A DNA stretch of 64,000 nt from Nitrospiria bacterium (lineage in GTDB: Bacteria; Nitrospirota; RBG-16-64-22). The stretch covers positions 16,334-80,333 of the forward strand of contig CAKKSE010000008.1 of the NCBI GenBank assembly GCA_919903025.1. Reading direction: 5' to 3'. The position numbers and the translations under genes are program-made. Under the pieces are notes generated by a model, which had not been told where the DNA came from, did not search any database, and saw nothing but the letters and a program-made list of their open reading frames with translations. The stretch's first letter is position 1; every line of letters starts with the position of its first letter. This document shows positions 11,883 to 62,072 of the stretch, piece by piece.

Positions 11883-11955
11883 GAAACCTCCTTATTCAGG
11901 CCGTTCGGTTGATGGGTAGATAGGAAAAGCCCAAACCACAAGCTCTTGTCGATCT

Positions 11956-11992
11956 GCAATTTTCAATTTTCAATTTCCAATTTTCAATTCTT
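11956..11992. repeat. AT-rich heptad tandem repeat (AATTTTC)n, copy A
   Basis: CAATTTTCAATTTTCAATTTCCAATTTTCAATTC between the ntrY stop and the ntrX start. Confidence 0.6.
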
Positions 11993-12014
11993 GGCATCCA
12001 CCCATCCGCCCAGG

Positions 12015-14219: not shown

Positions 14220-14254
14220 CTCGGCCGGGCTCTTGGATGGAGAAGGAATCGTCG

Positions 14255-14920
14255 TCACGGCGTCTCCCGGCGGAGGGCGACAGCCAGCGGGCCCGGGGAG
14301 CCCGGGGAGAAGGACCCGGGCCCCCGGAACGATTGCGTCCCCTCCTTGAGCGTGAACTCGGGCGACGTCTTCCACGACGTGGAGAAGTCGTTGAACGAGA
14401 CGAAGAAGAGGATCGTCTCCAGGATGGCCGGAACGTTCGGCGTCCGCGACTCGGCCTTGAGCTGGATGTAGTACGGCTCGTTGGGCGCGAGGACCGAGCG
14501 GGGCGCCACGACGACGGACGCGAGCCGGCTCGTCCACACGAGCATCGGTGAAAACTCAGCGAAACTCTTCTCCTCGGAGCGCTCCCCGTCGCTCGCCCGG
14601 ACGGCGTAGAGCTTCTTGACCGAGTCGTACTTCACCTGCCGGAGGATCGTCCGCTGGGCGATGAATTCATCCGGCCACCAGTTGTACGACCGGTAGAGGT
14701 TGAGCGTATAGCGGAACTCCTTCGAGAAGCCGTTCTTGAGCGCCTCTTCGATCGCGGACGCGAACGGCCCCGTGAGCACCGCCGAGACGGCGACGCCCGA
14801 CGGCCCGATCGTCACGACGACGTTCGAGATCTGCTCGCCCTTCGCGAGCGCCGAGGCTGGAAAGAAGGGAACGAGGAGGGCGGAAACGGCAATCAAGAGG
14901 AGCGATCGAATTTTCGTCAT
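14255..14920 (-). CDS. Secreted DUF4390-like protein (commonly encoded upstream of ntrY)
   Basis: Signal peptide followed by a roughly 190-aa domain. Positionally conserved with NtrYX in several lineages. Confidence 0.45.
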   Translation of the reverse strand: MTKIRSLLLIAVSALLVPFFPASALAKGEQISNVVVTIGPSGVAVSAVLTGPFASAIEEALKNGFSKEFRYTLNLYRSYNWWPDEFIAQRTILRQVKYDSVKKLYAVRASDGERSEEKSFAEFSPMLVWTSRLASVVVAPRSVLAPNEPYYIQLKAESRTPNVPAILETILFFVSFNDFSTSWKTSPEFTLKEGTQSFRGPGSFSPGSPGPLAVALRRETP

Positions 14921-15073: not shown

Positions 15074-16117
15074 TCAGTCCTTTCCCCGCCTCTTCGGATC
15101 CATGTGATCGCGGAGAGCGTCGCCCAGGAAGTTGAAAGCCATCACGGTGAGGAAGATAAGGAGCCCCGGGATGAGAAGCCACTGGAACCTGAGGAGGTAT
15201 TCCACGTTCTGCGCCTCGGCGAGAAGAAGTCCCCAGGAGGAATCCGGGTCCTTGATCCCCAGACCAAGGAAGGACAGGGCGCTCTCGCCCAGGATGTAGC
15301 CGGGGATCGAGAGCGTCGCCGAGACGACGGCGTAATTGAACGTCGAGGGGACGACGTGGCGGACGAGAACCCGGGCGCCCGAGGCGCCCATCGCCCGGGC
15401 GGCCAGGACGTACTCGCGCTCCCGCTCGGAGAGGACGAGACCGCGGACGATCCGGGCGAGCCCCGCCCATCCGATGAACGAGAGGATGGCGACGATCAGC
15501 AGGTAGGTGAGCGACGACGGAAGCGTCGCCGGGATGATCACGGCCAGGGCCAAGAGGAAGTAGAACGTGGGGAGAGACATGAGGATCTCCGTCGCGCGCA
15601 TGATGACGAAGTCCGTCCGTCCCCCGACGTACCCGGAGAATGCCCCGATCAGGATCCCCAGCGTGTAGCTGATTGCGACGCCCACGAGGCCGATGGAGAG
15701 GGAGATCCGGCCTCCATACACGAGGCGCGAGAAGAAATCGCGCCCCAGAGCGTCAGTCCCGAGGAGGAAGAGGCGGGCGTCCGGGTCGGCCGTCGTGAGG
15801 ACCTTGCCGCGCTTGAAGAACGAAAGGCGGATCCGCTCCTCCGTCTCTTCGTACCGGCGCTTCCGGATGTCGGCAAGCTTCGTCTTGTGGACGTAGAGGG
15901 GCCCCTCCGACCACTCGCCCGGGGGCGCGAGATGGACGCGCATCGGCGGATGGTGCGGGTGGCGGCGGTTCTGCGCCGCCGGATCGTACGGCGCGGCGAC
16001 CGGCGCGAAGAGAGCCGCCAGCGCAAAGGCGGCGAGAAGCGCGAGACTAACGCGCGCCGGCCAGCCGGCGGATATCCAGAAGTCAGTCATCTTTCCCGAC
16101 CGGTGATCGTTTCTCAA
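15074..16117 (-). CDS. ABC transporter permease, OppC/DppC family (binding-protein-dependent inner-membrane component)
   Basis: EAA-loop region and 6 TM segments. Long N-terminal extension as in YejE/OppC. Confidence 0.8.
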   Translation of the reverse strand: MRNDHRSGKMTDFWISAGWPARVSLALLAAFALAALFAPVAAPYDPAAQNRRHPHHPPMRVHLAPPGEWSEGPLYVHKTKLADIRKRRYEETEERIRLSFFKRGKVLTTADPDARLFLLGTDALGRDFFSRLVYGGRISLSIGLVGVAISYTLGILIGAFSGYVGGRTDFVIMRATEILMSLPTFYFLLALAVIIPATLPSSLTYLLIVAILSFIGWAGLARIVRGLVLSEREREYVLAARAMGASGARVLVRHVVPSTFNYAVVSATLSIPGYILGESALSFLGLGIKDPDSSWGLLLAEAQNVEYLLRFQWLLIPGLLIFLTVMAFNFLGDALRDHMDPKRRGKD

Positions 16118-16206
16118 ACACTCACGGCCCGCCTATTACACACTTATGCTCCCTCCTCCCGCTTCACATCCCGACAACGGTGCACCCGGGCGACAACCAC
16201 CCTTCT

Positions 16207-16497
16207 TCAAGCAGCCTTGGCCTTTGCGATCCGGAGTCTCACCATGAGACCGATCTGGGCCAGCATGGCAATGAGCGTGTCGACGCTGAAGACGTCGATT
16301 TTTCCGCGCATCAAGTCGCTGATCCGAGGCTGAGTGACGCCCAGACTCTTGGCGGCCTCGGCCTGGGTCATGCCCTTGCGGCGGATGTATTTCTCGATCT
16401 CGGCCATCAGCTCGGCTCGAACACGCAGGTTCTCCGCCTCTTCGCGCTCGAACCCAAGATCCTTGAAAACGTTCCCGGATGACCTCGTCATCTTCAT
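16207..16497 (-). CDS. higA: HigA-like Xre-HTH antitoxin
   Basis: GMTQAEAAKSLGVTQPRISDLMRGK is a Cro/C1-type HTH. Start at the internal Met gives an ATGA overlap with the upstream toxin. Confidence 0.7.
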   Translation of the reverse strand: MKMTRSSGNVFKDLGFEREEAENLRVRAELMAEIEKYIRRKGMTQAEAAKSLGVTQPRISDLMRGKIDVFSVDTLIAMLAQIGLMVRLRIAKAKAA

Positions 16498-16835
16498 GTT
16501 TTCTCCTTTCTCCATTTCAACAGACGCCAGAAGCGTTCGGCCGCAAGATCGATGTCGTGCTTGGGCGTTTTCCTGGTCTTCTTGCCGAAGGCATGCAGAA
16601 CGTAAACGGCCTCTTCGAACTTGGCCACGTAGAGGACCCGAACCTCGCTCCCCGCGTGCACCCGGATTTCCCGAACGCCTGGGCCGACGGCCGGCATCGG
16701 CTTCCAGTCGGTCGGTTCATCTCCGGCCTGAACTTTGAAGAGCTGATACCCGGCATCCTTCCGCGCGTCGGGCGGAAAATCTCTCAGATCGTCGAGCGTT
16801 GTCGCCACCCATACCAGCGGCTTCATGATATACAA
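16494..16835 (-). CDS. higB: HigB/RelE-superfamily toxin (Gp49-like)
   Basis: 113 aa in toxin-first order, as in HigBA. AT-rich promoter directly upstream (16840-16880). Confidence 0.7.
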   Translation of the reverse strand: MYIMKPLVWVATTLDDLRDFPPDARKDAGYQLFKVQAGDEPTDWKPMPAVGPGVREIRVHAGSEVRVLYVAKFEEAVYVLHAFGKKTRKTPKHDIDLAAERFWRLLKWRKEKT

Positions 16836-16975
16836 ATACTTATATATATGTCAATGAATCCGCCGTCAAGTCTCGGCGGGTCCGGTGACCCGCCCTACGA
16901 AATTCGTCCGCTCACCCGACCGTAGGGCGGCACACCGTGCCCGCCCAACACCATGCGCGCCGCCCGGCCGCCGCC

Positions 16976-17941
16976 TCACTCATACCGAATCCTCGGGTCG
17001 GCGAACTTGAGGGCGATGTCGGCCAGAAGATTGCCGACAATCAACAACACCGCGCCGATCAGGATCGAGCCCATGAGGAGGAAGAGGTCCTGGGAGAGGA
17101 CGGCCTGGAGCATCAGGTTTCCCATCCCTTGCAGGTGAAGGACCGCCTCCACCAGCGCCGCGCCGCCGAAGAGAGCGCCCAACTCGTACCCCGCGATCGT
17201 GATGAACGGGTTGATCGCATTCCGGAGGATGTGCTTGTAGACGACGGTCCGCTCCGGGAGCCCCTTCGCGCGGGCCGTCCGGACGTAGTCCGCGTTCATG
17301 ATCTCCATCACGTTCCCGCGCATGAGGCGCATGAGTCCCGCCACACCCGAAGTCCCCAGGACGACGACGGGCAGGATGAGGTGATGCACCCGGTCCCAGA
17401 TCTTCTCGAAGAACGAAAGCGTGTCGTAGTTCGGCGAGAACGAGCCGCCCGTCGGGAACCACCCCGTCTGGAGGGCAAAGATGAGAAGGAGGAGAGCGAA
17501 GAAGAAGGATGGGATCGACATCCCCATGAAGGCGAAGAACGAGAGGAGCCGGTCGGCCCACGTCCCAGGCCGGAGGGCCATGAAGAGGCCCAGGGGGACC
17601 GCAAGCCCCCAGGAAACGACCATCGCCGCGGCCGAGAGGATCACCGTGTTGGGGAGGAAGCGGCCGATCAGGGAGAGGACGTCCACGTGGTAGAAGATGC
17701 TCTCGCCGAAGTCGAGATGGAGCACCCGCCAGAGCCAGAGAAAATAGCGGATGACGAGCGGCTTGTCGAACCCGTACTTGGCCTCCATCGCCTGGAGCGT
17801 CTCGGGCGAGAACTGGGGGTTCATCTTGAGGGAAGTGAAAAAGTCGCCCGGCGCGAGATCCACAACAACGAACGAGATGAACGTGATCCCGATGATGAGC
17901 GGGACCGCGTTGACCAGGCGCCTTAGAACGTACCGGCCCAT
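16976..17941 (-). CDS. ABC transporter permease, OppB/DppB family
   Basis: N-terminal MGRYVLRRLVNAVPLIIGITFISF is a classic OppB start. EAA loop present. Confidence 0.8.
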   Translation of the reverse strand: MGRYVLRRLVNAVPLIIGITFISFVVVDLAPGDFFTSLKMNPQFSPETLQAMEAKYGFDKPLVIRYFLWLWRVLHLDFGESIFYHVDVLSLIGRFLPNTVILSAAAMVVSWGLAVPLGLFMALRPGTWADRLLSFFAFMGMSIPSFFFALLLLIFALQTGWFPTGGSFSPNYDTLSFFEKIWDRVHHLILPVVVLGTSGVAGLMRLMRGNVMEIMNADYVRTARAKGLPERTVVYKHILRNAINPFITIAGYELGALFGGAALVEAVLHLQGMGNLMLQAVLSQDLFLLMGSILIGAVLLIVGNLLADIALKFADPRIRYE

Positions 17942-17986
17942 CTCACATCACCCCAACGCTGCGGAGCCGCGCCCGGACAGACGCGG

Positions 17987-19471
17987 CTACTCCTCTCTCA
18001 GGCTGTAGGCAAAATCGTTGTAAGCCATGAGCGTGATGATCGTTGATATCCTCACCCTTCTGTCGAACACCCACGGCAGGATCTTGAAGATGAACTTGAT
18101 CCGCTCCAGGTCGCGCGTCAGAAGATACGTCATCAGCCTCGCGGCAAAGAGCACCCTGTATTTCGCCTTGATCGGATTTCTCCTGTTCTGCTCCCGCCAG
18201 AAGTCCTTCTCCCAGAAATACTTGAGTTTCCTGTAGATGGACGCGAACGAATAGACCTCTCTCCACACGCGGACAAAGCCCTTCTTGAGTTCGGCGGGCG
18301 TCATGTTTCTTGGCTTGAAAACGACCGTCTTGGAATCGTATCGGTCCCAGTCCTTGTGCAACAGCCGGCCTTCCTTCTCCATCCTGTCGAAGAGGCCGGT
18401 GCCGGGGAACGGCGTCAGGATGCTGACGAGCGCGAAGAGCACGTTGTTGCCGTTGATGAACTCGGCCAGTCCGCGAAACGTCTCCTGGGTGTCGTTGTCA
18501 TGGCCCACGATGAAAGCGCCTTGAACGAGAATGCCGTGGGAATGGATCTTCCCGATCGCTTCGCTGAAGTCCTGCCTCAGATTTATCTTCTTGTTCATCT
18601 GCCTCAGGGTGTCGGGGGTGATGGATTCGAAGCCGATGAGGATCCCGCCGCACCCGCTCTTCGCCATGAGACCCAGAATCTCGTCGTTCCGGGCCACGTT
18701 CAGGCTCGCCTGGCACGACCAGCTCACGTCCAAGGGAGCCAGTTCCTCAAGAAACGCCTTCGCGTACCTTCTGTCCGCGACAAGGTTGTCGTCGGCGAAG
18801 AAGATCGCCTTCTTCCTCTCGAGGATGCCGTCCAGCTGAGTCTCACGGATATCGTTCATCACCTGCTCCAGGGAGCGGTGCCGGATCCGGGTCCCGTCGA
18901 ACGCGTGGACCGAGCAGAAATCGCAGAAGAACGGACATCCCTTTGTCGTCTGGACGATGTGCAGAAGGTACCTGTCGTTCTTGAGGAGGCGCCGGTCGGG
19001 CATCGGGCATTCCGCGAGATTGGGGTGGCCTGGGCTTCTGTAGATCGGCTTGAGCCGGTTGTTCCTGAAATCCTCCAGCAGATCCCCCCAGACCCCTTCC
19101 GCCTCGCCGATCACGACGCTGTCCGCGTGCCGGCACGCCTCCTCCGGGAGCATGGAGGCGTGAATCCCTCCCAGGACCACCTTGACGCCCCGCGCGCGGA
19201 ATTGCGATGCAATCTCGTACGCCCGCTTCGCGAACATCGTGCGAACGCTGATGCCGACGAGGTCCGCCGGCGCGTCGAAATCGATCGGCTCCACGTTCTC
19301 GTCCACGACCGTGACGTCGACGTCCGGCGGGGTGAGCGCCGCCAGCGTGGGAATGGCCAGGAGGTAGCCCGAGTACGCCTTCGAGAATATGAACCGGGCC
19401 ACGTACCTGTAGTCGTAGATGTTCTTTTCGTTGTCCGTTCCCTGCCGTGGGGTAATCAGCGTCAGTCTCAT
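17987..19471 (-). CDS. B12-binding radical SAM protein (class B) with a C-terminal DUF4070-like extension
   Basis: N-terminal cobalamin-binding Rossmann region, CPFFCDFC (CxxxCxxC) radical-SAM cluster motif, and a C-terminal roughly 100-aa basic/aromatic domain. Its start codon shares a nucleotide with the upstream substrate-binding-protein (SBP) stop. Confidence 0.8.
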   Translation of the reverse strand: MRLTLITPRQGTDNEKNIYDYRYVARFIFSKAYSGYLLAIPTLAALTPPDVDVTVVDENVEPIDFDAPADLVGISVRTMFAKRAYEIASQFRARGVKVVLGGIHASMLPEEACRHADSVVIGEAEGVWGDLLEDFRNNRLKPIYRSPGHPNLAECPMPDRRLLKNDRYLLHIVQTTKGCPFFCDFCSVHAFDGTRIRHRSLEQVMNDIRETQLDGILERKKAIFFADDNLVADRRYAKAFLEELAPLDVSWSCQASLNVARNDEILGLMAKSGCGGILIGFESITPDTLRQMNKKINLRQDFSEAIGKIHSHGILVQGAFIVGHDNDTQETFRGLAEFINGNNVLFALVSILTPFPGTGLFDRMEKEGRLLHKDWDRYDSKTVVFKPRNMTPAELKKGFVRVWREVYSFASIYRKLKYFWEKDFWREQNRRNPIKAKYRVLFAARLMTYLLTRDLERIKFIFKILPWVFDRRVRISTIITLMAYNDFAYSLREE

Positions 19472-21201
19472 CAGTACGCGAGCCTCATCTTATCCGGGTC
19501 GGGCGTCCCCCAGATCGTGGGATTGTACCCGAGCACGCGGTTCTTGTGGGCGACGAAGACCGACTCCCGGGCCGTGAGGATCACCGGAAGCTCTTCGTGC
19601 AGGATCTCCTGGATTCTTTTGTAGTACTGCGGCCTCTTCTTCGGGTCGAGCTCCCGCGCCCCGAGGTCGATCAGCCTGTCGATCTCCGCCTCCCACGCCG
19701 TCTCAGGCTTGGCCTGCCGCGGGTTCCACATGTGGAGATGGCCGCTCGACTTGTAGAAGGTCGAGCCCCAGTGCGGCTCCAGCCCCCCCGTCAGGCCGAT
19801 CAGGATCGCGTCCCACTCGAAGTTGCTGTCGAGCTTCTCGACAAGCGTATTGAATTCGAGCGGCTTGTAGTTGACCTTGAGCCCGAGCTTCTTCCAGTCC
19901 TCGAGGACGATCGCCGCGATCCGTTCGCGCGTCCGGTTCCCCTGGTTCGTGTAGAGGTCGAACGAGACGGGATTCCCGTTCGGGTCCTCGCGGATCTTGT
20001 CCCCGTCGCGGTCCCGGTACCCGGCCTCGTCGAGAAGTCTCTCCGCCTTCTTGAGATCGTACTCGTAGTCCTTGATGGCGGCGTTGTGGAACCTCTTGAC
20101 CTCTGGAGAGATGTCAGCCACAGCCGGCTCGCCGTACCCGCGGAACGCGTTGAAGACGATCGTCTCCTTGTCCACGGCGTGGGCCAGCGCCCGGAGGAAC
20201 CTCTTGTCCGTGAACCAGTCGAGGCGCGGATCGCGCTTCCCGCCCTTCACGTAGTGCCGGGGGTTCCGGTTGAAGGCGATGAACGGCGTCCCCGTGGAAA
20301 GCCCCAGCTCCTTCAGCGTCCAGTCCCTCGCCCGGGCCTTCCCGCGAATGGTCTCGACCATGTCGGCCGAGGGGCCGTAGATGTCCGTGTCCCCCGCGTC
20401 GAACTTGACGTAGGCCGTGTTGATGTCCTTCACGATCAGGAGGACGCGCCGCTTGACGTACGGAAGCCGCTCTCCCTTCTCGTCCGTCCGCCAGTAGCGG
20501 GGATTGACCTCGTACAGGACGTGCTGGGCGGGAACGTACTTCGTGATGAGGTACGGCCCCGTTCCGGCAAGCTCTTCCGGGGGCGTGTTGATGTTCCAGG
20601 CCGAGTCGAACTTCCCGGCGTCCAGCGCCGCTTCGAGCTTGTGCCTCGGCAGAATATCCACCTGCACGATGTCGAGGAACGGCGCGAAGGGAAAGGGAAG
20701 CGTGAACGTGACCGTGTGCCGATCGGCCGCCTTCACGATCATCTTCCCCCCCTCGATCATCCAGGCGTCCCGGATCGAGGAAGCGACCTTGGGGTCGTAG
20801 ATCGCCCGCGCCGTGAAGACGACGTCCTCGGCCGTGAACGGCACGCCGTCGCTCCAGAGAACGTCCTTGCGGAGCCTGAAGGTCCACGTCCGGCCGTCGG
20901 GCGAGACGGACCACGACTCCGCCAGGACGGGCTCGAAGTCGGTCGTGACGGGATCGCGCCGGATGAGCCCCTCGAAGAGGATCCCCGCGACGGCCGACGA
21001 CGACGTCTCCTTCGAGACGATCATGTTGAAGGTCTTGGGGTCCCCCAGCGTGTCGGTCGTGAGCGTGGGCGGAAGCTCCACCCGCTCCGCCTTGCCCGAG
21101 CAGGCGAGAAGAAGGGCAAACAGCGGAATGTAAGCGAACCGGGGAACGATCGTAATTCTGCGCACGGCGCGCATAATACCATAGTGAGAGCGCATTGCCA
21201 C
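19471..21201 (-). CDS. ABC transporter substrate-binding lipoprotein, family 5 (oligopeptide/dipeptide/nickel type)
   Basis: Lipobox LLLACSG and an SBP_bac_5 domain over about 520 aa. The start could be one of several N-terminal Mets. Confidence 0.8.
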   Translation of the reverse strand: MAMRSHYGIMRAVRRITIVPRFAYIPLFALLLACSGKAERVELPPTLTTDTLGDPKTFNMIVSKETSSSAVAGILFEGLIRRDPVTTDFEPVLAESWSVSPDGRTWTFRLRKDVLWSDGVPFTAEDVVFTARAIYDPKVASSIRDAWMIEGGKMIVKAADRHTVTFTLPFPFAPFLDIVQVDILPRHKLEAALDAGKFDSAWNINTPPEELAGTGPYLITKYVPAQHVLYEVNPRYWRTDEKGERLPYVKRRVLLIVKDINTAYVKFDAGDTDIYGPSADMVETIRGKARARDWTLKELGLSTGTPFIAFNRNPRHYVKGGKRDPRLDWFTDKRFLRALAHAVDKETIVFNAFRGYGEPAVADISPEVKRFHNAAIKDYEYDLKKAERLLDEAGYRDRDGDKIREDPNGNPVSFDLYTNQGNRTRERIAAIVLEDWKKLGLKVNYKPLEFNTLVEKLDSNFEWDAILIGLTGGLEPHWGSTFYKSSGHLHMWNPRQAKPETAWEAEIDRLIDLGARELDPKKRPQYYKRIQEILHEELPVILTARESVFVAHKNRVLGYNPTIWGTPDPDKMRLAY

Positions 21202-21344
21202 CCACGGCCGTTCACCACGGCCGTTCGATTCTGCATTCCCTTCACCCCCACCCTGGCCCTTGTATCTTGTCCAAGGGGGTCTGGGTCATAGACAATGGAA
21301 CCGTTCTTTAGCCAAGGCGTGGCAGATCGTCCTTGCCCCCCCCC

Positions 21345-21424
21345 GTCAAGGGGGAGGAAATTCCTGAAGCACCGACTTGCTCTTTTCCTCCCCCCTTGAG
21401 GGGGAGGAATAAGGTGGGGGGGGG
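21345..21424. repeat. G-rich hairpin element (CCTCCCCC-loop-GGGGGAGG family), two adjacent units
   Basis: CAAGGGGGAGGAAA ... TTTCCTCCCCCCTTGAGGGGGAGGAA read directly in the divergent promoter region. Confidence 0.5.
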
Positions 21425-21458
21425 TGATTCACCTTTTTCTGTGCTATACTTCCCGCCC

Positions 21459-22937
21459 ATGTCATCCCCGCGAACGTTCAAACTCCTGTACAAGATCGTC
21501 GGCCTCGTCATCATTATTGTGGCCGCCATCGCCGCGGCCTCCTACGCCGTCTCCGCCACCCGGGAAGAGAGGATCAAGCGGGAGGAGCAGGAGCTCCAGA
21601 TGTACAAGATGGCGAACATCATCGCCTCCCTCAAACTCATCGAGCCGGTCACCGGCCGGAACATCGACTGGGGAATCTACCAGAAGTTCGTGGACATCAC
21701 TGGAAGCCTCGACCCGGACATCGTTGCGATCGCCGTCATGGACGGGGCGAACAGCATCAAGGCCTACTGGGCGGAAGAAAACCGGTTCAAGACCGCGAAC
21801 CCCCAGGCCGCCCTGGACTTGAAGAGCGCCCTCCGCTCCGCCGTCGCCCAGGGAAAGCTCCGCTCCCGGGAAGGGGACCTCGTGACGGTGGACTCTCCGA
21901 TCGCGGTGGACAACCGCCCCGTCGCGCTCATCCGGATCGTCTTCTCCCAGACGCGCATGAAGGAAGACGTCGCGCGGAACAGGCGGACCAGCCTCAACAT
22001 CGCGCTCGGCGTCCTGGGACTCGGCATCTTGGGCGGAATCGTCCTGGCGCGCGGCGTGACGCGACCGCTCGAAAACCTCGCCGGCAAGATGCAGAAGGTC
22101 GCCGCGGGCGACTTCTCGGAACGGATGACGTCTTTCCCGCGGGACGAGGTGGGGATGCTCGCCCGCACGTTCAACGGAATGGTCGACGGGCTCGTCGAGC
22201 GGGACCGGATCAAGGCCGAGCGGGACCGGCTGGAAGTGGAGAAAGCGCGCTACCGCGATACCCTCCAGCGGTACGTCTCCCGCCAGGTGGCGGATCGGAT
22301 CCTGAGCGAGCACGGGACGCCCTTCCTCAAGGGAGAACGGCGGGACGTGACTATCCTCTTCTCGGACATCCGCGGCTTCACGCGGATGTCCGAGCGGATG
22401 CAGCCCGAAGAGGTCGTCCTGCTGTTGAACGAATACTTCTCGCTCATGATCGACATCGTCTTCAAGTACGACGGGATGCTCGACAAATTTATCGGGGACT
22501 GCGTGATGGCCGTCTTCGGCGCGCCGGAAGGGCACCCGGACGACGCCATCAGGGCCGTCCGGACGGCCCTGGAGATGAGGGACGCGGTCCGCCGGTTCAA
22601 CGACCGCCGCGCCAAGGAGGGTAAGGAGATGATCCAGGCCGGGATCGGGATCAACTCCGGCCAGGCCGTGGCGGGGAGCATCGGCTCCCTGGAGCGGATG
22701 GAGTACACGGTCATCGGCGACAACGTGAACCTGGCGAGCCGCCTCACGTCGAGCGCCGTGAGCGGGCAGATCCTGATCAGCGAGCAGACGTACAGGAAGG
22801 TCGGGAATTACGTCCGGGCGGCGAAGCTCCCGTCGATCCAGGTCAAGGGGAAGGAAGCGCTCGTGGACATTTACGAAATCGAGGACCTCGCGGCGGCCGA
22901 GACCGTCGCGATGCCCGGAGGAGGTCAGCGACAATGA
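21459..22937 (+). CDS. Membrane adenylate/guanylate cyclase with HAMP domain (class III CHD)
   Basis: One TM segment, a periplasmic-type region, a second TM segment, HAMP, then CHD with FSDIRGFT...GDCVMAVFG...NLASRL metal and substrate residues. Start trimmed to the Met at 21459. Confidence 0.8.
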   Translation: MSSPRTFKLLYKIVGLVIIIVAAIAAASYAVSATREERIKREEQELQMYKMANIIASLKLIEPVTGRNIDWGIYQKFVDITGSLDPDIVAIAVMDGANSIKAYWAEENRFKTANPQAALDLKSALRSAVAQGKLRSREGDLVTVDSPIAVDNRPVALIRIVFSQTRMKEDVARNRRTSLNIALGVLGLGILGGIVLARGVTRPLENLAGKMQKVAAGDFSERMTSFPRDEVGMLARTFNGMVDGLVERDRIKAERDRLEVEKARYRDTLQRYVSRQVADRILSEHGTPFLKGERRDVTILFSDIRGFTRMSERMQPEEVVLLLNEYFSLMIDIVFKYDGMLDKFIGDCVMAVFGAPEGHPDDAIRAVRTALEMRDAVRRFNDRRAKEGKEMIQAGIGINSGQAVAGSIGSLERMEYTVIGDNVNLASRLTSSAVSGQILISEQTYRKVGNYVRAAKLPSIQVKGKEALVDIYEIEDLAAAETVAMPGGGQRQ

Positions 22938-23866
22938 TGCGTTGGATGGGCGTGATCGCCGTATCGGCCGGACTGGTCTTTTCCCAGGGATGCGGGAAAA
23001 AAGAGGAAGACAAGAAGATCACGATCGAGTTCAACGTGAAGAAAGAGGAGGCCCAACCTCCCGAGAAAGCGGAGGAGAAAAAGGTCGCCGCCGCACCCGC
23101 TCCGACCGTGCCTTCGGGGCCTGCCCCGACTGTGCCTTCGGGGCCGGCTCCCGCTCCCCAGCCTCCGCCGGTCGCGCCTCCCAAGGCCGAAGTGAGAGAG
23201 GCGCCGCCGTCTCCGGCCGCGGCGCCCAAGACCGAGCCAAGACCCGAACCCAGGCCCGAAAAGAAGAAAGAAGAAGGACGGGTCGCCGCCATCGCGCCCA
23301 AGGCGCCGCCGCCGCCCAGGCCCAAGCCTGTCAACCTTCCGGACGATTTCCTCAACAAGGAAGTCTACGTCCGCACAACCCTCCACGCCTTGAAGAACAA
23401 GCTTTTCTGGCAGAATTTCCTGTCGGGCACGCCGATCGTCCCGGGAACGCCCGCGACGATCACGCTTGTGAAGGGAGGCGCGGCGGTCGTCACGATCAAC
23501 GGCGTCCCGCACAAGTTCGCCTTCTCGGGACACAAGGCGGAGCCCCGGCCGGCCGTAATGCTCTCGAAGTTCTTCTCCCCCGCCGACCCGGCGAAAGTCC
23601 TAACGCCCGAGGACCTCAGGGCGTCCCGGGAGCCCGAGGCCAGGCCCGGCATGTCGAAGACAGCCGTCCTCGCTCTCTACGGCGTACCGTACGCCGTGGG
23701 CGCGAACGAGAACCCCACGGGGATGCTGGCCCTCGACGAGATCCACAAGGACACCCGGTGGGTCTATCTCGTGACGAAGAAGGAGAAGCTCGTCATTGTC
23801 TTCAGCAACGGCAGGGTCTCCGGAGTGCAGAAGGGGAGCCCGAAGGGACGAGTCGAAGCGCCGTGA
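22934..23866 (+). CDS. Lipoprotein with Pro/Ala-rich linker (paralog 1)
   Basis: Lipobox FSQGC, repeated PAPTVPSGPAP units, and a C-terminal globular domain. ATGA overlap with the cyclase stop. Confidence 0.55.
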   Translation: MMRWMGVIAVSAGLVFSQGCGKKEEDKKITIEFNVKKEEAQPPEKAEEKKVAAAPAPTVPSGPAPTVPSGPAPAPQPPPVAPPKAEVREAPPSPAAAPKTEPRPEPRPEKKKEEGRVAAIAPKAPPPPRPKPVNLPDDFLNKEVYVRTTLHALKNKLFWQNFLSGTPIVPGTPATITLVKGGAAVVTINGVPHKFAFSGHKAEPRPAVMLSKFFSPADPAKVLTPEDLRASREPEARPGMSKTAVLALYGVPYAVGANENPTGMLALDEIHKDTRWVYLVTKKEKLVIVFSNGRVSGVQKGSPKGRVEAP

Positions 23867-24588
23867 AGAGCGGCCGCTTTATCGCCCCTCTTCTCCTTCT
23901 CGCCCTCGCCTCCTTCCCCGCCTGCGGCGAGAAGAAGGAAGAGGACAAGAAGATCACGATTCAGTTCAACGTCTCGAAGGAGACGGAGGAGAAGAAGAGC
24001 GAGACGGCCCCCGGGGCGCCGCAGAAGCCGCCCGCTCAGGCGGGAGCGCAAACTGCGCTCGCCCCGGCGGAACGCAAGGTTTCCCCCCAGCCCCCCGCTG
24101 TGCGGGGCGCCAAAGCAGCCGCCCGCGCGCCCCTGCCGCCTGAGGCCCCTGAAGCCAATGAAGTCAAAGAAAAGATCGAGGCCGCGAAGCGCGCTCTCGA
24201 TCAGCGGCAGGCGGCCGAGGCGATCCGGCTCCTGAACGAAGCCAAGCGGCTAGCCCCCGATCATCCCCGTCTTTACCCGATGCTCGCCCGCGCCCACCAG
24301 ATGAACCGGGACCGGGAAGGAGCGCGGGCCGCAATCCAGGAAGGCCTCGTTCGGAACCCGGACAACGCGCTCCTTCTCTATCTGCGCGGGTTCCTTTACC
24401 ATCGGGAAGGAAACGCCCATCTCGCCCGGCAGGACCTTCGACGGGCGCTTGAGATCGACCCGAACCTTCCGATGGCTCAGCGGGCCCGCCAGACGCTCCA
24501 GGATATCGAGGAAGGCAAGCCGCCCCGCCGTCCGGCCGCCCGCAGGCAAGGCCCCGGGGGAGGCCCGCCCGGAGTTGACGACTTCTGA
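23863..24588 (+). CDS. Lipoprotein with TPR-like repeats (paralog 2; GTG start overlapping the previous stop)
   Basis: MKSGRFIAPLLLLALASFPAC lipobox. Shares the CG(E)KKEEDKKITI(E/Q)FNV N-terminus with paralog 1. C-terminal TPR-like helices. Confidence 0.5.
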   Translation: MKSGRFIAPLLLLALASFPACGEKKEEDKKITIQFNVSKETEEKKSETAPGAPQKPPAQAGAQTALAPAERKVSPQPPAVRGAKAAARAPLPPEAPEANEVKEKIEAAKRALDQRQAAEAIRLLNEAKRLAPDHPRLYPMLARAHQMNRDREGARAAIQEGLVRNPDNALLLYLRGFLYHREGNAHLARQDLRRALEIDPNLPMAQRARQTLQDIEEGKPPRRPAARRQGPGGGPPGVDDF

Positions 24589-24654
24589 AGCCCCGGGTAA
24601 GATGGGTTTTGCCTTTGCCGGGCGCTTGGCCCGGCCTTCCACGGAGACGCCGCA

Positions 24655-25029
24655 ATGCCGTCGACCGCGAATATCCTTGTCATCGAGGATGAAGAACCGA
24701 TGCGGGCTCTTCTTTCCGCGGAGCTTGCCGACGAGGGATACGACGTCGCAACGGCCGCCAGCGGCGAGGAAGGCCTTGCCTTGTTCGACGCGAGGCGTCC
24801 AGACCTCGTCATCCTGGACATCAAGATGGCGGGGATCGGCGGCATGAAGACGCTCGAGCTTCTCCGCGAGCGGACGCTGGACGTCCCGGTCCTTCTCTTC
24901 ACGGCATATCCTGAATACAAGCAGGACTTCAACGCCTGGGCGTCCGACGACTACGTCGTGAAATCCTCGGACATGGCCCCGCTCAAGGAGAAGATCCGCT
25001 TCCATCTGAACGCCCGGAGGACTCGTTGA
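24655..25029 (+). CDS. Single-domain response regulator (CheY-like receiver)
   Basis: DD...D(57-like)...T...K receiver residues. 124 aa. Confidence 0.8.
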   Translation: MPSTANILVIEDEEPMRALLSAELADEGYDVATAASGEEGLALFDARRPDLVILDIKMAGIGGMKTLELLRERTLDVPVLLFTAYPEYKQDFNAWASDDYVVKSSDMAPLKEKIRFHLNARRTR

Positions 25030-26336
25030 CCGACCCGTCCGGGGGAAGCGCCGATCTCTCCGCCGCCCGCTTGGGCGAGCTCTGGCGGACGATCGAGGAC
25101 CTCAAGCGCCAGATCCGCGAGCGGGACGAGCTTCTCGCCGAATACCGCAAGGCCCTCGAAACCCACCTGGCCCCCCCCCGCCCGTACCAGATCGTGACGG
25201 CCAAGGAGAAGGTGGACCGTTCCATCGCCATCCTGAACACGCTCTACCACGTGAACGGCGGGTACACCTCGGCCATGTCCGGGCCGTACCGGGCGCTCTG
25301 GCTCCGGGACACGCTCTACTGCGCGATCGCCCGCGAGTACGTGGGCGACTTCGAGAGCATCAAGAAGACGTACGGCTTGGCCTTCGACATCTTTCACAAG
25401 TCCGGCGACAAGATATCGAGCTGTATCGACGATCCGCCGACGGCGAAGACCGACTTTCTCCACGCCCGCTACAATCCCCACACCCTCCAGGAGTTTCCCG
25501 AGGAGTGGGGCCACAACCAGCTCGACATCTTCGGCCTCTTTCTCTACAAGGTGGGGGATCTGCGGCAGAAGGGGATCGTCGTCTACCGCGACTACAAGGA
25601 CCTGAAGCTGGCCCAGGACCTCGTCTGGTATCTCTTCTCGCTGGACTGGGACAAGGCCCCCGATTTCGGCGTATGGGAAGAAGGGCCGGAGGTCCACGCG
25701 TCGAGCGTCGGGGCCGTCCTGGCCGGGCTCCGCGCGGCCCGGGAGCACATCGCCGAGATCCGCGTTCCCGGCCGCTTCCTCGCCGCTGGGCGCGAGGCCT
25801 TGGGCCGCCTTCTCCCGCGGGAAAGCGAGTCGCGGCCGTATGACCTGGCCCAGCTCTCCCTTCTCTGGCCGTACCGCGTCGTCTCGCCCGAGCAGAGGGA
25901 GCAGATCCTGTCGAACATCGAGACTCACCTCGTCCGCGAACGGGGGGTCATCCGCTACCCCGGGGACCGTTACTACAACGCCGATCCGAGCCGCCCCGAC
26001 GGAAATGAAGCGGCCTGGCCGATGGGCTTCTCGTGGCTCTCGATCGTGTACACCAAGATCGCCGAGGAAGACCTCGCCGCGGGACGCCGTTCCGACGTCA
26101 TCGCGTCATTCAAGAAAGCACACCACTACATCAAGAGGACCGAGTCAGCCATGGTGGACGGAGGGGCGATCCCCGAGCTCTACGTGGGCGACAAACCGAA
26201 TCCGAACACGCCGCTCACCTGGGCGCAGGCGATGTACATTGTGGCCGTCCAATCCCTGGAAAACCTCAAGCTTTCCCTGGACCGCGTCGAAATGGGAAGT
26301 GTGGCCGCGGAAATGGAGAGGGAAGGCGCGGGCTAA
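25026..26336 (+). CDS. Glycoside hydrolase family 15-like protein (glucoamylase/trehalase/phosphorylase-kinase-type (alpha/alpha)6 barrel) with an N-terminal coiled coil
   Basis: GH15-type motifs (LWLRDT, WEEGPEVHASSVG, W...E catalytic-region pattern). ATGA overlap with the upstream response regulator. Confidence 0.65.
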   Translation: MTDPSGGSADLSAARLGELWRTIEDLKRQIRERDELLAEYRKALETHLAPPRPYQIVTAKEKVDRSIAILNTLYHVNGGYTSAMSGPYRALWLRDTLYCAIAREYVGDFESIKKTYGLAFDIFHKSGDKISSCIDDPPTAKTDFLHARYNPHTLQEFPEEWGHNQLDIFGLFLYKVGDLRQKGIVVYRDYKDLKLAQDLVWYLFSLDWDKAPDFGVWEEGPEVHASSVGAVLAGLRAAREHIAEIRVPGRFLAAGREALGRLLPRESESRPYDLAQLSLLWPYRVVSPEQREQILSNIETHLVRERGVIRYPGDRYYNADPSRPDGNEAAWPMGFSWLSIVYTKIAEEDLAAGRRSDVIASFKKAHHYIKRTESAMVDGGAIPELYVGDKPNPNTPLTWAQAMYIVAVQSLENLKLSLDRVEMGSVAAEMEREGAG

Positions 26337-26344
26337 AGACGGTA

Positions 26345-26388
26345 TTGAAAATTGTAAATTTCAAATTGAAAATTTTCAATTTTCAATG
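26345..26388. repeat. AT-rich heptad repeat, copy B (palindromic arrangement GAAAATT...AATTTTC)
   Basis: TTGAAAATTGTAAATTTCAAATTGAAAATTTTCAATTTTCAATG between two convergent genes. Confidence 0.6.
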
Positions 26389-26408
26389 CCCTGCCAATGA
26401 CCTGGCGC

Positions 26409-26933
26409 CTACGTCCTCAGCGCCAGCTCGACAATGAGGACGACGAGAGTTCCGAGGACGAGGTTGACGCGGACGAGCGCGGTGAGACTCTTCAGATGGG
26501 CCGGGATCTCCGCGTACCGCACGCTCCCTGGCTGTTCCAAGCGGGCGAGATCGGACGCGGCGGCGTAGTGGCGGAAGACGATCCGGAGGAAGACGAGAAC
26601 CATCGCGAGCGTGACCGCGAACTTCGCCGTCATGAGAATCCCGTACCGGCTCCCGGCGAGGCTTGGCGACACGCCGAGCCGGGCGAAATAGAAGTAGGCG
26701 CCCGTCGCCGCGAGGACCGCGATGCTTGACCCGGCCAGGATGAAGAACCGCCGAAGGACCGGAACGATGAGCGGGATTCGCTCCTCGATCGGGCGGGTGA
26801 CGAGAACCGGGTGCAAGGCCAGGATGGCGAAGACCATGCCCCCAAGCCACGTCACGGCGGCAAGAACATGAAGAACGTGGAGCAGGGCATCGATCGTCAC
26901 CATGCGGATCCTCCGGAAGACGTCCGCGATCAT
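26409..26933 (-). CDS. Small polytopic membrane protein (CopD-like/DUF-type), function unknown
   Basis: About 5 TM helices. The N-terminal 57 codons of the longer ORF look non-coding, so the start is trimmed to an internal Met. Confidence 0.4.
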   Translation of the reverse strand: MIADVFRRIRMVTIDALLHVLHVLAAVTWLGGMVFAILALHPVLVTRPIEERIPLIVPVLRRFFILAGSSIAVLAATGAYFYFARLGVSPSLAGSRYGILMTAKFAVTLAMVLVFLRIVFRHYAAASDLARLEQPGSVRYAEIPAHLKSLTALVRVNLVLGTLVVLIVELALRT

Positions 26934-26987
26934 ATCCGGCGGGGGGCCGCGGCGTCCAGCGCCTGCTGAACCGAAGGAGAAGAACTC

Positions 26988-28250
26988 ATGGCGGAAGGAA
27001 TAAGCGGTTTCGTCGTCGTCGGCGTCATTCTGGCCGGCTCGATCGCAGCCTTCGTCATCGGCGCGATCATCGGCCGAAAAAAGGGCGCGGCCGAAGTCGA
27101 GCAATCCTTTAACCAGAACATCAAGCAGGTCGAGGCCCGCCTAGCCTCCGAGGGTTCTTTCCGGAAGGCGCTCCAGAACGAGATCGACTGGCTCAAAAAG
27201 GAGAACGAGCGGTACATCCACCTGTTCGTTACGTTCCCCGAGGCCGTCAAGCGCCTCAACTCCACCCAGTCGGTGGACGAAGTCTCCTCGGCCGTCGTCC
27301 GCCTGGCGAAGATGCTCATCGACGCGGACGAGATCAGCCTCTTCTTCTACAAGGAGGCCGAGAACGAGCTCCGCATCGCCCTGGCCTTCGGGATCAAGCG
27401 CGAGCAGGCCGAGGGGCTCCGCGTGCCGTTCGGCGAGGGGATGATCGGGACGGCGGCCGAGACCCGCGTCCTCCTCTCCGAGAACGAATACCGGACCAAC
27501 CCCGAATACGTCGAAAAGAGGGCCCGCGCGCGGGAGACGCGGATCGTGTCCACCTACGCCGCGCCGATCGTCTGCAAGGAAAAGCTCTACGGCGTCCTCA
27601 ACATCGGGAACATCAAGAACCGCACGGGAAACGAGCGGAAATTCCTGGCCATGATCTCCGACCTGGCCGCCGTCTCGCTGGAGAACGCCCTCACGCTCTC
27701 GGGGACGAGAACGGAGGCGACGACCGATCCCCTCACGAGCCTCTACAACCGGCGTTACTTCCAGGAGCGCCTCGTCGAGGAAGTCCAGCGCTCCCGGACG
27801 TACAACGTCCCTCTTTCCGTCTTCATGATGGACATCGACAACTTCAAGCACTACAACGACAACAACGGCCACCCGGAGGGCGACAGGCTCCTCAAGGCGG
27901 TCTCCAAGCTCATCCGGGACAACACGCGCAAGACCTCCATCGTCGCCCGCTACGGCGGCGAGGAGTTCATCGTCCTTCTTCCCGACACTCCCAAGGAAGG
28001 CGCCATGGCCTACGCGGAGAAGATGCGATCGCTCATCTCGGGGACGGAGTTCCCGCACGGCGACAACCAGCCGCTCAGGTGCATCTCGGTCTCCGGGGGC
28101 GTCGCCACGTTTCCCTTCGACGGGGACTCGGGCGACGAGATCGTCCGCCGCGCCGACGAGGGGCTCTACCAGAGCAAGGAGCGGGGGAGGAACCGCGTCA
28201 CCCCCTACGAGCCGCCCGCCTTCCACAAGATGACCCTGCCGGGAGACTGA
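26988..28250 (+). CDS. GAF-GGDEF diguanylate cyclase (membrane-anchored)
   Basis: N-terminal TM segment, coiled coil, GAF domain and a GGDEF domain with an intact RYGGEEF active site. Confidence 0.85.
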   Translation: MAEGISGFVVVGVILAGSIAAFVIGAIIGRKKGAAEVEQSFNQNIKQVEARLASEGSFRKALQNEIDWLKKENERYIHLFVTFPEAVKRLNSTQSVDEVSSAVVRLAKMLIDADEISLFFYKEAENELRIALAFGIKREQAEGLRVPFGEGMIGTAAETRVLLSENEYRTNPEYVEKRARARETRIVSTYAAPIVCKEKLYGVLNIGNIKNRTGNERKFLAMISDLAAVSLENALTLSGTRTEATTDPLTSLYNRRYFQERLVEEVQRSRTYNVPLSVFMMDIDNFKHYNDNNGHPEGDRLLKAVSKLIRDNTRKTSIVARYGGEEFIVLLPDTPKEGAMAYAEKMRSLISGTEFPHGDNQPLRCISVSGGVATFPFDGDSGDEIVRRADEGLYQSKERGRNRVTPYEPPAFHKMTLPGD

Positions 28251-28706: not shown

Positions 28707-29759
28707 CTATTTCCGCCATCTCTGCGTCTTCCGCCACGCCGCGCTCTGTCCGCGTCCAAGGCACTCGATGCGGCCGTCCGATTTCAGGTTTTTCAAAACG
28801 CGCCGGATCAAGTCGATGCTCACGCCCGGACATAGCCTCTGAATCTCCGCCACACGAAAGGCATCGGACATTTCGTCAATCGCACGGGCCACAAGCTCCG
28901 ACTTTTCTCCCTTGGGGCTCTTGACCTGCCCCATGCGTTCCTCGAATTCCAGGTAAGCGGTCTTGAGGATGTAAAGAAGGTAATTCACATACGGCCAAGG
29001 ATCATTCTTCCCTTCATGCCATTTCGTGGAACTCTGCTCAAGCGTCTCGTAATAGCGTTCTTTATTCTGCTCGATGAGGCGTTCCAGACTGATATACCGG
29101 CCGACTTCATATCCGAGGTGATGGCATTGGAGCAGGAGCAACAGCCGCGACACCCGGCCATTGCCGTCCCTGAACGGATGAATACAGAGAAAATCCAGAT
29201 TGAACGCGGCCATCGCGATCAACGGGTGAATCTTGCGCTCCTCAAGGCTCGCGTCCCAGAGCACGGCTAAAGTCTTCATGGCACCGGGGGTTTTCGCGGC
29301 CGGCAAGGTCTTGAAACGGATGCGGGATGTGCCGTCCGGACGCTTTTCGATGATATCCCCGTCTTTTTCCTTGTACTTGCCGGCATCCCAGATTTCCCCG
29401 CGAGCCAGCCGGTGCAAACGCAGGATCGTCTCTTCGGTAATCGGAAGCCTCGGCCCTTTCTCATGGATCAGGGCCAGCGCTTCCCGATAACCATGCACTT
29501 CCTCTTCGTTCCGGTCTCGGAGAAGTGGCCTGCCGAAAACGAGCGTCTCGATGCGCGCCCTCTCCACCTCCACCCCCTCGATCCGGTTCGACGAAACCGT
29601 GCTCTCGATCAACGCGTGCTCGCGCAACACCTTCAAGCGCTGGGGTGATTGCCGCGTGAACAACTCCTGTTTGCCGCGCGCCTCGCCGAGATCGGTGAGA
29701 TACCACGAGGTTGTTACCGGAATGCTCTCGTGCTTCGCCAAGAGCTGGCGCAATGTCAT
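28707..29759 (-). CDS. Fic family protein (class II; N-terminal inhibitory SxxxEG helix) with a C-terminal wHTH
   Basis: HPFRDGNGRVSR Fic motif. TVSSNRIEGVEV is the inhibitory motif. Start trimmed to the Met at 29757-29759. Confidence 0.8.
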   Translation of the reverse strand: MTLRQLLAKHESIPVTTSWYLTDLGEARGKQELFTRQSPQRLKVLREHALIESTVSSNRIEGVEVERARIETLVFGRPLLRDRNEEEVHGYREALALIHEKGPRLPITEETILRLHRLARGEIWDAGKYKEKDGDIIEKRPDGTSRIRFKTLPAAKTPGAMKTLAVLWDASLEERKIHPLIAMAAFNLDFLCIHPFRDGNGRVSRLLLLLQCHHLGYEVGRYISLERLIEQNKERYYETLEQSSTKWHEGKNDPWPYVNYLLYILKTAYLEFEERMGQVKSPKGEKSELVARAIDEMSDAFRVAEIQRLCPGVSIDLIRRVLKNLKSDGRIECLGRGQSAAWRKTQRWRK

Positions 29760-29971
29760 CACGGTTCTCGCTCTCCAATGGGCTGTTGTAGCGCGGATTC
29801 TATCATCTTTTCGCATCTGTACAACGGAACTCGGAAATCGTCGAGGAGAACCGCATGGGCGGCAACAATCCCGGCCCGTAAGTTCTTACAGACTTATGAC
29901 AGGGGTCACTACGAGGTGGAAGGAGTCTCGGCGGGTGTGATATAAAGGCCGCTCGTTCGGATTCAGCTTCT

Positions 29972-46189: not shown

Positions 46190-46220
46190 AATTTTCAATT
46201 TTCAATTTTCAATTTACAAT
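46186..46220. repeat. AT-rich heptad repeat, copy C
   Basis: TTGAAATTTTCAATTTTCAATTTTCAATTTACAAT, 13-47 nt upstream of the ABC-F start. Confidence 0.6.
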
Positions 46221-62028: not shown

Positions 62029-62072
62029 TAATTGAAAATTCTCAATTGAAGATTTGAAATTGAAGATCGAGA
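62019..62072. repeat. AT-rich heptad repeat, copy D (reverse orientation: GAAAATT units)
   Basis: GAAAATTGATAATTGAAAATTCTCAATTGAAGATTTGAAATTGAAG between the addA stop and the psuG start. Confidence 0.6.

Follow-up and report, generated by a model that had tools for sequence, protein, structure and literature searches.

A conserved pair of a single-domain receiver and a phosphorylase-kinase-like GH15 protein, located next to a lineage-specific adenylate cyclase module in Nitrospirota

The stretch analysed here, referred to as the window, comprises 64 kb of contig CAKKSE010000008.1 of a Nitrospiria bacterium. Between positions 21459 and 26336, it carries five genes on the plus strand that encode a predicted HAMP adenylate cyclase, two probable lipoproteins, a single-domain CheY-like receiver and a cytoplasmic protein with a glycoside hydrolase family 15 (GH15) fold similar to domain D1 of phosphorylase kinase (PhK). 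The genes of the receiver and the GH15 protein are found as a pair across Nitrospirota, and their conservation indicates that they are probably a functional pair with a promoter of its own. By the same comparison, the cyclase-lipoprotein module is a lineage-specific neighbour of this pair. The explanation favoured here, two modules arranged head to tail with the receiver directly controlling the GH15 hydrolase, is as a whole given an even chance of being correct. What is new is a conserved cassette of a receiver and a PhK-like GH15 protein, tied tentatively to cyclases.

A total of 153 loci encoding members of the GH15 family were collected and searched with the window proteins using tblastn. 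The receiver gene is located directly upstream of the GH15 gene, on the same strand, in 16 of the 17 distinct Nitrospirota loci with enough flanking sequence (counted by hand after merging duplicates). No such pair occurs at the roughly 128 loci of other phyla (Deltaproteobacteria, Myxococcota, Verrucomicrobiota and DPANN archaea). Between the two Nitrospirota lineages, sequence identity amounts to 48-60% for the receiver and 56-60% for the GH15 protein, and within the sister clade of the window lineage to 61-74% and 68-78%, respectively; by this measure, receiver and GH15 diverge in parallel. No fusion of the two is found among the matches listed, where long N-terminal extensions of GH15 proteins consist of membrane segments or, in one case, of a cyclase domain.

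The genomic neighbourhood of the pair is specific to each lineage. In the window lineage, the cyclase and one or two lipoproteins are encoded upstream, and CopD and a GAF-GGDEF protein downstream. The sister clade shares only the receiver and GH15 genes, in the order OppC-receiver-GH15-EamA. All five genes occur together only in near-identical relatives (L001, L012 and L149-152). The GH15 protein of the window is 94% identical to that of the Nitrospirae metagenome-assembled genome (MAG) NC_groundwater_891 and 91% identical to that of RBG_16_64_22 (L013 and L095), in which four of the five genes are present and only a remnant of lipoprotein 2 is left. These identities place the window in an uncultured Nitrospirota lineage from groundwater. 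An earlier note on this DNA, made from the sequence alone, had taken the five genes for one unit and proposed a phylogenetic profile of the block. In this profile the receiver-GH15 pair is conserved and the five-gene block is not, so that the view of a single unit is not borne out.

The gene coordinates are 21459-22937 for the cyclase (492 aa), 22934-23866 for lipoprotein 1 (310 aa), 23863-24588 for lipoprotein 2 (241 aa, GTG start), 24655-25029 for the receiver (124 aa) and 25026-26336 for the GH15 protein (436 aa). Products of identical length resulted from independent gene calls on contigs of a Hainich groundwater metagenome. Pfam supports four of the five assignments (HAMP and Guanylate_cyc, TPR_2, Response_reg, and Glyco_hydro_15); the exception is lipoprotein 1, which was assigned from its translation and has no match in Pfam or NCBIfam. 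Cyclase and lipoprotein 1 overlap at ATGA and the two lipoproteins at GTGA; a gap of 66 bp follows, and the receiver is translationally coupled to the GH15 gene at TTGA. The GH15 gene starts with the TTG at 25026, 5 nt downstream of a GGAGG motif. A start at the TTG at 25074 is possible but disfavoured by this motif and by the independent gene calls. The tight packing, the gene identities and the three overlaps at four junctions reported in the earlier note are thus correct, apart from the third overlap, which had been read as ATGA. Four-base start/stop overlaps are frequent in bacterial operons, and the overlaps are therefore not unusual in themselves.

A promoter-like site, TTGACG-17-TAAGAT (24575-24603, plus strand), was found in a consensus scan. 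It spans the end of the lipoprotein 2 gene and the 66-bp gap ahead of the receiver gene. Neither hexamer varies between the window, L012 and L013. Across the 110 bp ahead of the receiver, the window and L013 share 86% identity, compared with 34% and 55% in the intergenic regions flanking the cluster. Lipoprotein 2 was lost in L013 (Nitrospirae RBG_16_64_22) by a clean in-frame deletion: positions 9516-9563 hold a 15-codon open reading frame (ORF), MKTGPGGAPPGVDDF followed by a stop codon, that consists of the first 4 and the last 11 codons of the gene. Since the 110 bp and the promoter-like site survive this deletion, the boundary of a separate module is placed here; the conserved site suggests an additional internal transcription start. 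Lipoprotein 2 itself is dispensable, as it is deleted in a sister species. The deletion junction is located at a short GGCC microhomology.

The receiver (Pfam Response_reg, 82.3 bits) has no output domain according to Pfam. Its sites were assigned by comparison with the CheY sequence. The equivalents of CheY D12, D13, D57, T87, Y106 and K109 are kept in nine receiver orthologues, with Ser in place of Thr in one of them. In the window protein they correspond to E11/D12, the phospho-acceptor Asp in LDIKM, the T in FTAY, and the Y and K in YVVK, and the phospho-acceptor site is complete as judged from this alignment. The alpha4-beta5 face carries the unusual conserved motif TAYPE[FY]KxDFxxWxxDxY-VK(S/T), in which Ser or Thr replaces the usual Pro after Lys. 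The nearest histidine kinase, an NtrY-like protein encoded 7-9 kb upstream at 12015-14537, is paired with its own sigma-54 regulator, and the receiver is an orphan. It resembles CheY-FliM, CpdR and DivK in being a stand-alone receiver with an acidic pocket, Asp and a Thr/Tyr/Lys switch and without DNA-binding or enzymatic output. It differs from these in that its conserved partner gene encodes a glycoside hydrolase and that no kinase is linked. A literature search returned no paper linking GH15 or a bacterial PhK-like protein to response regulators, and nothing on the receiver-GH15 pair or on this bacterial GH15 family.

The family of the GH15 protein comprises about 915 representatives at 50% identity (exhaustive profile search, E up to 0.001). 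The resemblance to PhK-like glycosidases stated in the earlier note is confirmed, as D1 of PhK alpha and beta are both the closest PDB sequences (profile E 4e-21 and 1e-15) and the top fold matches. Pfam Glyco_hydro_15 (PF00723) is matched with 47.3 bits (gathering score 22) over residues 84-287 only. NCBIfam models TIGR01577 and TIGR01535 reach 33.5 and 16 bits against cut-offs of 820.7 and 741.9 bits, with the C-terminal third alone aligned. The nearest characterised enzyme is the Kribbella flavida isomaltose glucohydrolase (5z3a; profile E 0.07, 18-20% identity), a bacterial GH15 enzyme that consists of the catalytic domain only. Its sequence similarity is marginal and its genomic context a different one; we know of no receiver partner for it. 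Bacterial GH15 glucoamylases, glucodextranases and trehalases (1lf6, 1ulv) have the same catalytic fold and pair of catalytic Glu residues as the window protein, which lacks their N-terminal beta-sandwich and remains far under the family cut-offs. With NCBIfam scores of 16-34 bits against cut-offs above 740, the protein is no routine trehalase or glucoamylase. The possibility raised in the earlier note, a routine trehalase with unrelated neighbours in relatives, applies only as far as the neighbours in other phyla are concerned, which are indeed unrelated.

Catalysis by GH15 enzymes depends on a general acid in the alpha5-alpha6 loop and a general base in the alpha11-alpha12 loop (PMC12446779). 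Both Glu residues, the presence of which had been left to domain annotation, are found in the window protein. When 32 family members from several phyla (the window protein and sequences from Nitrospirota, Deltaproteobacteria and others) are aligned, W92-L93-R94-D95, W217-E218-E219, R310-Y311, P383-E384-L385 and W399 are invariant. E218 (WEE), the predicted general acid, aligns with WEE of 5z3a and Glu185 of PhK alpha. E384 (PELY), the predicted general base, matches LLPELY of PhK alpha near Glu371 and, in 1lf6, the ISEQ region of the general base. In the AlphaFold2 (AF2) model, E218 is located between helices 190-205 and 225-241 (alpha5-alpha6 loop) and E384 between helices 355-374 and 398-435 (alpha11-alpha12 loop). 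An N-terminal coiled-coil helix (residues 13-47) precedes the (alpha/alpha)6 barrel, and the model contains no beta-sandwich domain. The protein has no signal peptide and is thus assigned to the cytoplasm; by its motifs, it is probably a competent glycosidase of the PhK D1 type.

PhK alpha and beta subunits consist of five domains (D1-D5, about 1000-1200 aa) and are assembled with the gamma kinase and calmodulin (PMC10978961). The window protein shares the glucoamylase-like barrel with their D1 (8jfk, 8jfl, 8z5m) and the catalytic Glu residues with D1 of PhK alpha. Domains D2-D5 are absent, as its 436 aa hold a D1-like sequence only, and it is therefore homologous to a single PhK domain without belonging to the PhK subunit family. 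It also lacks the CaaX farnesylation motif and a gamma kinase or calmodulin partner. Further differences are its prokaryotic origin, the additional N-terminal coiled coil and the pairing with a two-component receiver.

In a subgroup of the family (P0319, P0328, P0330, P0335, P0336, P0339, P0350, P0354 and P0371), an N-terminal extension of 130-290 aa precedes the GH15 domain. The two extensions that were read, those of P0319 and P0330, contain hydrophobic, membrane-like segments. The GH15 domain of this subgroup looks more PhK-like, with HWEE, PE(L/A)YY and a long insert before the base Glu.

In the mechanism proposed here, the first module consists of a probably envelope-sensing membrane HAMP class IIIb adenylate cyclase and one or two lineage-specific lipoproteins, translationally coupled to each other. 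The second module, the single-domain receiver and the cytoplasmic GH15 protein of the PhK D1 type, is the evolutionarily stable unit, coupled via TTGA and served by its own promoter-like element plus possible read-through. The GH15 protein is taken to be an active alpha-glucoside hydrolase because the full inverting-glycosidase machinery is kept; its substrate would be intracellular. The receiver, phosphorylated by an unlinked kinase, would control the activity or the oligomeric state of the GH15 protein by direct binding. Candidate contact surfaces are the clade-specific N-terminal coiled coil of the GH15 protein and the alpha4-beta5 face of the receiver. If this control is real, the pairing would be, according to the literature search, the first case of a glycoside hydrolase under a single-domain response regulator. 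Should co-transcription be all that unites the pair, the locus would be no more than a common patchwork of signalling genes in the genome of a groundwater Nitrospirota bacterium.

Several findings weigh against this mechanism. At one sister-clade locus (L096), the gene of a coiled-coil GH15 protein is preceded by an AtpI-like gene and not by a receiver. No HisKA/HATPase gene is found in the block or adjoining it in any related locus. The promoter-like site is only a consensus match, and its 86% conservation exceeds the identity at third codon positions (80-90%) only modestly. No carbohydrate gene is found consistently near GH15 homologues in any phylum. Finally, the closest solved relative, D1 of PhK alpha, has apparently intact catalytic residues but shows no activity on maltose, isomaltose or glycogen in a cryo-electron microscopy study from 2024 (PMC10978961), so that conserved residues are no proof of hydrolysis.

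Among the alternatives, a single five-gene pathway would have the lipoproteins and the cyclase sense the envelope, cyclic AMP (cAMP) being made, and the receiver relay the signal to the GH15 protein, by which a glucan or compatible solute is mobilised. This is considered unlikely. It is in line with the common orientation of all five genes, with the overlaps at three of the four junctions and with a sequence scan in which no convincing plus-strand terminator was found between them. Cyclase genes also recur near the pair. In seven of the eight sister-clade loci with enough flanking sequence, an FHA-GAF-cyclase of a different class III type is encoded 1-5 kb downstream of receiver-GH15, past EamA and variable inserts, and outside Nitrospirota cyclase genes are rare beside GH15 homologues (about 4 in 1.54 Mb). 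Moreover, the metagenomic protein P0263 combines a class III cyclase domain and a GH15 domain of the PhK type in a single ORF. A functional tie of the GH15 family to cAMP synthesis is possible on these grounds, and the association of cyclase and GH15 drawn in the earlier note thereby gains some independent support.

No mechanism supports the wiring of the cyclase to the hydrolase through the receiver, as the earlier note had it. A cyclase is unable to phosphorylate a receiver, since phosphotransfer is not part of its chemistry, and neither the receiver nor the GH15 protein contains a cyclic-nucleotide-binding, GAF or CRP-type domain in Pfam. CRP-like sites are not above chance. The five-gene block is confined to near-identical genomes, one of its genes is deleted in L013, and L016 has no downstream cyclase. 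The sister-clade loci are syntenic with one another and so amount to about one observation. The identity of 46-51% between the cyclase of the window and that of the sister clade is no evidence of orthology, because the catalytic subfamily is very large, with over 5000 relatives, of which hundreds, in many architectures, reach 48-60% identity. The fusion is a singleton on an AT-rich contig of 2 kb. P0263 (L153, ENA ERZ27315390, contig k141_72936, positions 96-1769) is a 557-aa ORF with the cyclase at residues 11-166 and the GH15 domain at residues 194-546, and ranks among the best 150 of the 915 family representatives. Its general-acid Glu is replaced by Ser (FWSETQE) and its base Glu is kept (IPEVY); the replacement suggests a ligand-binding rather than a hydrolytic GH15 domain.

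The loss of the general acid also bears on a second alternative, in which the GH15-fold protein is, as D1 appears to be in PhK, a non-enzymatic sugar sensor or scaffold that reports the carbohydrate status together with the receiver, possibly to the cyclase. Since P0263 and P0250 have lost this Glu (Ser and Arg, respectively), the fold is non-catalytic at least sometimes, and the closest solved relatives, D1 of PhK alpha and beta, are regulatory, with no hydrolase activity detected. In the window protein and its 31 aligned relatives, however, the two catalytic Glu and the remaining GH15 signature residues do not vary, a pattern expected under catalytic selection, and the majority of the family are proteins of about 400 aa that stand alone and are encoded in housekeeping contexts. 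This alternative is given a small chance.

An equally small chance is given to the receiver and the GH15 protein being mere co-transcribed neighbours; the receiver would then have its function elsewhere, for example as a phosphate sink or in regulating OppC or EamA. It is common for single-domain receivers to have distant targets. The receiver gene of the sister clade is linked no less closely to the OppC gene upstream of it (overlapping it by 1 nt or separated from it by 1 nt in L003 and L093) than to GH15, and EamA follows GH15 in all sister loci. In the window lineage, by contrast, OppC is encoded 5-6 kb away on the opposite strand and the 64 kb hold no EamA gene, yet receiver and GH15 overlap by 4 nt. 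GH15 is the sole partner of the receiver that is retained through both rearrangements, which speaks against this alternative.

The glucoamylase-like domains of PhK alpha and beta were reportedly recognised in 2003, and their function is said to have been open since. The window protein, from a small and compact prokaryotic family, stands much closer to PhK D1 than to any characterised GH15 enzyme. It has all catalytic residues, and its expression and a screen for its substrate would be easy. The proximity of cyclases and the one fusion hint at a GH15 fold that links carbohydrate status and cyclic-nucleotide signalling. A broader proposal, that prokaryotic GH15 proteins of the PhK D1 type are signalling-coupled sugar enzymes or sensors, switched directly by a phosphorylated receiver in Nitrospirota and tied to cAMP synthesis through gene neighbourhood in two lineages or through the P0263 fusion, and represent a bacterial antecedent of the animal PhK regulatory subunits with their control by cAMP and phosphorylation, is a long shot; if true, what the glucoamylase-like domain of PhK does could be studied conveniently in this family.

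The statement of the earlier note that this is not a standard carbohydrate operon holds, as no glycogen, trehalose or maltodextrin gene is found in the annotated ORFs across the 64 kb. Gene context in other phyla was also considered as a guide to the substrate of the GH15 protein and rejected, as the neighbours are not consistent. In deltaproteobacterial MAGs (L006-L011, L017-L070), a YegS/DAGK-type lipid kinase is encoded directly upstream of GH15 at 35 loci and a CDF cation efflux protein directly downstream at 29; fumarate reductase/succinate dehydrogenase and 2-oxoacid:ferredoxin oxidoreductase genes are also found nearby. At four Verrucomicrobia-type loci, a phosphoglucomutase-like gene is located within 0.1-2.6 kb of GH15. 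In the sister clade (L002, L003, L014-L016, L092-L094, L097-L102), the tightly coupled upstream gene encodes a lone OppC-type permease with no OppB, OppA, OppD or OppF nearby. Between GH15 and EamA, some sister-clade genomes have inserts of the toxin-antitoxin, HEPN/NTase or Schlafen-like type.

The cyclase of the window (Pfam Guanylate_cyc 119 bits, HAMP 57 bits) contains two transmembrane (TM) segments, predicted by reading the translation, around a periplasmic region of about 140 aa, followed by HAMP and the class III catalytic domain. The best-aligned structures are Cya2-derived ones and Pseudomonas aeruginosa CyaB. The catalytic domain matches CyaB (3r5g) at E 4e-40, with DKF(I/V)GD and (Y)T(V/I)IG...NLASRL in common. 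Adenylate-specific class III cyclases are characterised by two metal-binding Asp, transition-state Asn and Arg residues and a specificity pair of Lys with Thr or Asp. Aligned with 3r5g, the window protein has FSDIRGFT, DKFIGD and TVIGDNVNLASRL, and its specificity pair is Lys (DKFIGD) and Thr (TVIGDNVNLASRL) as in CyaB; the guanylate cyclase Cya2 (2w01) has Glu and Gly at these positions. From the Lys/Thr pair, cAMP is predicted as the product and class IIIb as the subclass. The cyclase shares the order of two TM segments, periplasmic loop, HAMP and class III domain as well as the Lys/Thr pair with CyaB-type class IIIb HAMP cyclases. It differs from these in its periplasmic region, which, like the domain of lipoprotein 1, belongs to no family recognisable by Pfam or homologue search. 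Among the loci searched, the whole cyclase and lipoprotein 1 are confined to the genus-level group of the window.

In lipoprotein 1, a signal peptide with the lipobox FSQG-C is followed by a KKEEDKKITIEFNV module, then by a linker rich in Pro and Ala, and finally by a C-terminal domain of about 180 aa. The linker holds two copies of the PAPTVPSG unit, a number that varies among relatives. Homologues of the C-terminal 180 aa form six clusters only, all of at least 86% identity and from a single genus-level group of Nitrospirota. An AF2 model built from five sequences reached a pLDDT of 35 and is unusable; a likeness of the C-terminus to BamE is no more than an impression. Lipoprotein 2 combines the lipobox ASFPA-C and an N-terminal module shared with lipoprotein 1 with a C-terminal TPR (Pfam TPR_2, 39.6 bits). 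The lipobox rule is [LVI][ASTVI][GAS]-C. VFSQG-C of lipoprotein 1 fits a relaxed PROSITE-type form of it; ASFPA-C of lipoprotein 2 is atypical with Pro at -2, but is kept in L012.

The common N-terminus, CG(E)KKEEDKKITI(E/Q)FNV, covers about 18 mature residues with about 80% DNA identity, estimated by eye from the alignment, and is found only in these two lipoprotein genes within the window. The two had been described as tandem paralogues with a nearly identical mature N-terminus and different tails. The N-terminus and the tails (Pro/Ala-rich with two PAPTVPSG repeats versus TPR) are as described; paralogy over the full length is not supported, as the likeness is limited to these residues and a low-complexity linker. 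The lipoproteins are most likely periplasmic accessory or co-sensor proteins of the cyclase. YfiBNR, NlpE-Cpx and RcsF-Rcs are envelope sensors with accessory lipoproteins, and in the window, the lipoprotein genes are similarly overlap-coupled to the gene of a sensor. The analogy serves as a lead only.

Upstream of the cyclase gene, an extended -10-like element, TGcTATACT (21442-21450, plus strand), was read from the sequence. It ends 8 nt before the ATG at 21459, and no Shine-Dalgarno sequence precedes this ATG. The geometry in L013 is the same (TGCTATAAT, 8 nt, ATG of the cyclase). From this arrangement, the cyclase mRNA may be leaderless or near-leaderless. Further upstream, at 21331-21427, two tandem C-run/G-run hairpins are found, CCCCC-GTCAA-GGGGG and a perfect 10-bp stem, TTCCTCCCCC-CTTGA-GGGGGAGGAA, with a G9 run behind it. 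In L013 these hairpins are not kept, and their position is taken by GATTCACC-type repeats. Matches to the CRP-like pattern TGTGA-N6-TCACA occur at chance level and none is located near 21200-21460 or 24500-24660, and cAMP-CRP control of the block promoters was rejected on these grounds. A search for structured RNAs in 20500-27500 returned one sub-threshold microRNA-model match and nothing else.

Downstream of the block, an AT-rich palindromic repeat (26341-26390) was found by inverted-repeat search and folding in the intergenic region between the convergent GH15 and CopD genes. Its arms of 21 nt are 90% complementary and form a hairpin of -22.1 kcal/mol (z = -3.9). The palindrome, ATTGAAAATT..AATTTTCAAT, occurs at four sites that are apparently intergenic according to a crude ORF map (11959-11988, 26344-26387, 46191-46213 and 62031-62046). 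With 64% GC in the genome, 10 dispersed matches were observed versus 0 expected by chance. Judged by these features, it could be a repetitive extragenic palindromic (REP)-like element or a bidirectional terminator.

The window as a whole is rich in signalling genes. In addition to the block, these comprise the NtrY-like HAMP-PAS histidine kinase and its sigma-54 response regulator (10500-14537, minus strand), a GAF-GGDEF diguanylate cyclase encoded shortly after the block (26988-28250, plus strand) and a GAF-HD (HD_5) protein (38906-40156, minus strand). Between 30400 and 38300, the GC content falls to 0.54-0.57. This region encodes, on the minus strand, a DNA-methylase-like protein of 739 aa, an AAA_13/SMC_N ATPase of 893 aa, a DUF2130 protein and an HTH and Peptidase_M78 (IrrE-like) protein. 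It is adjoined by a Fic gene (28707-29816) and is probably a defence or mobile island. On the minus strand at 15074-21201, a string of Opp-like ABC transporter genes, in which no ATPase gene was seen, is interrupted by a gene for a B12-binding radical SAM and DUF4070 protein (17987-19471). It is located between an SBP_bac_5 gene (19471-21201, 1-nt overlap) and OppB-like and OppC-like permease genes, which is an unusual placement.

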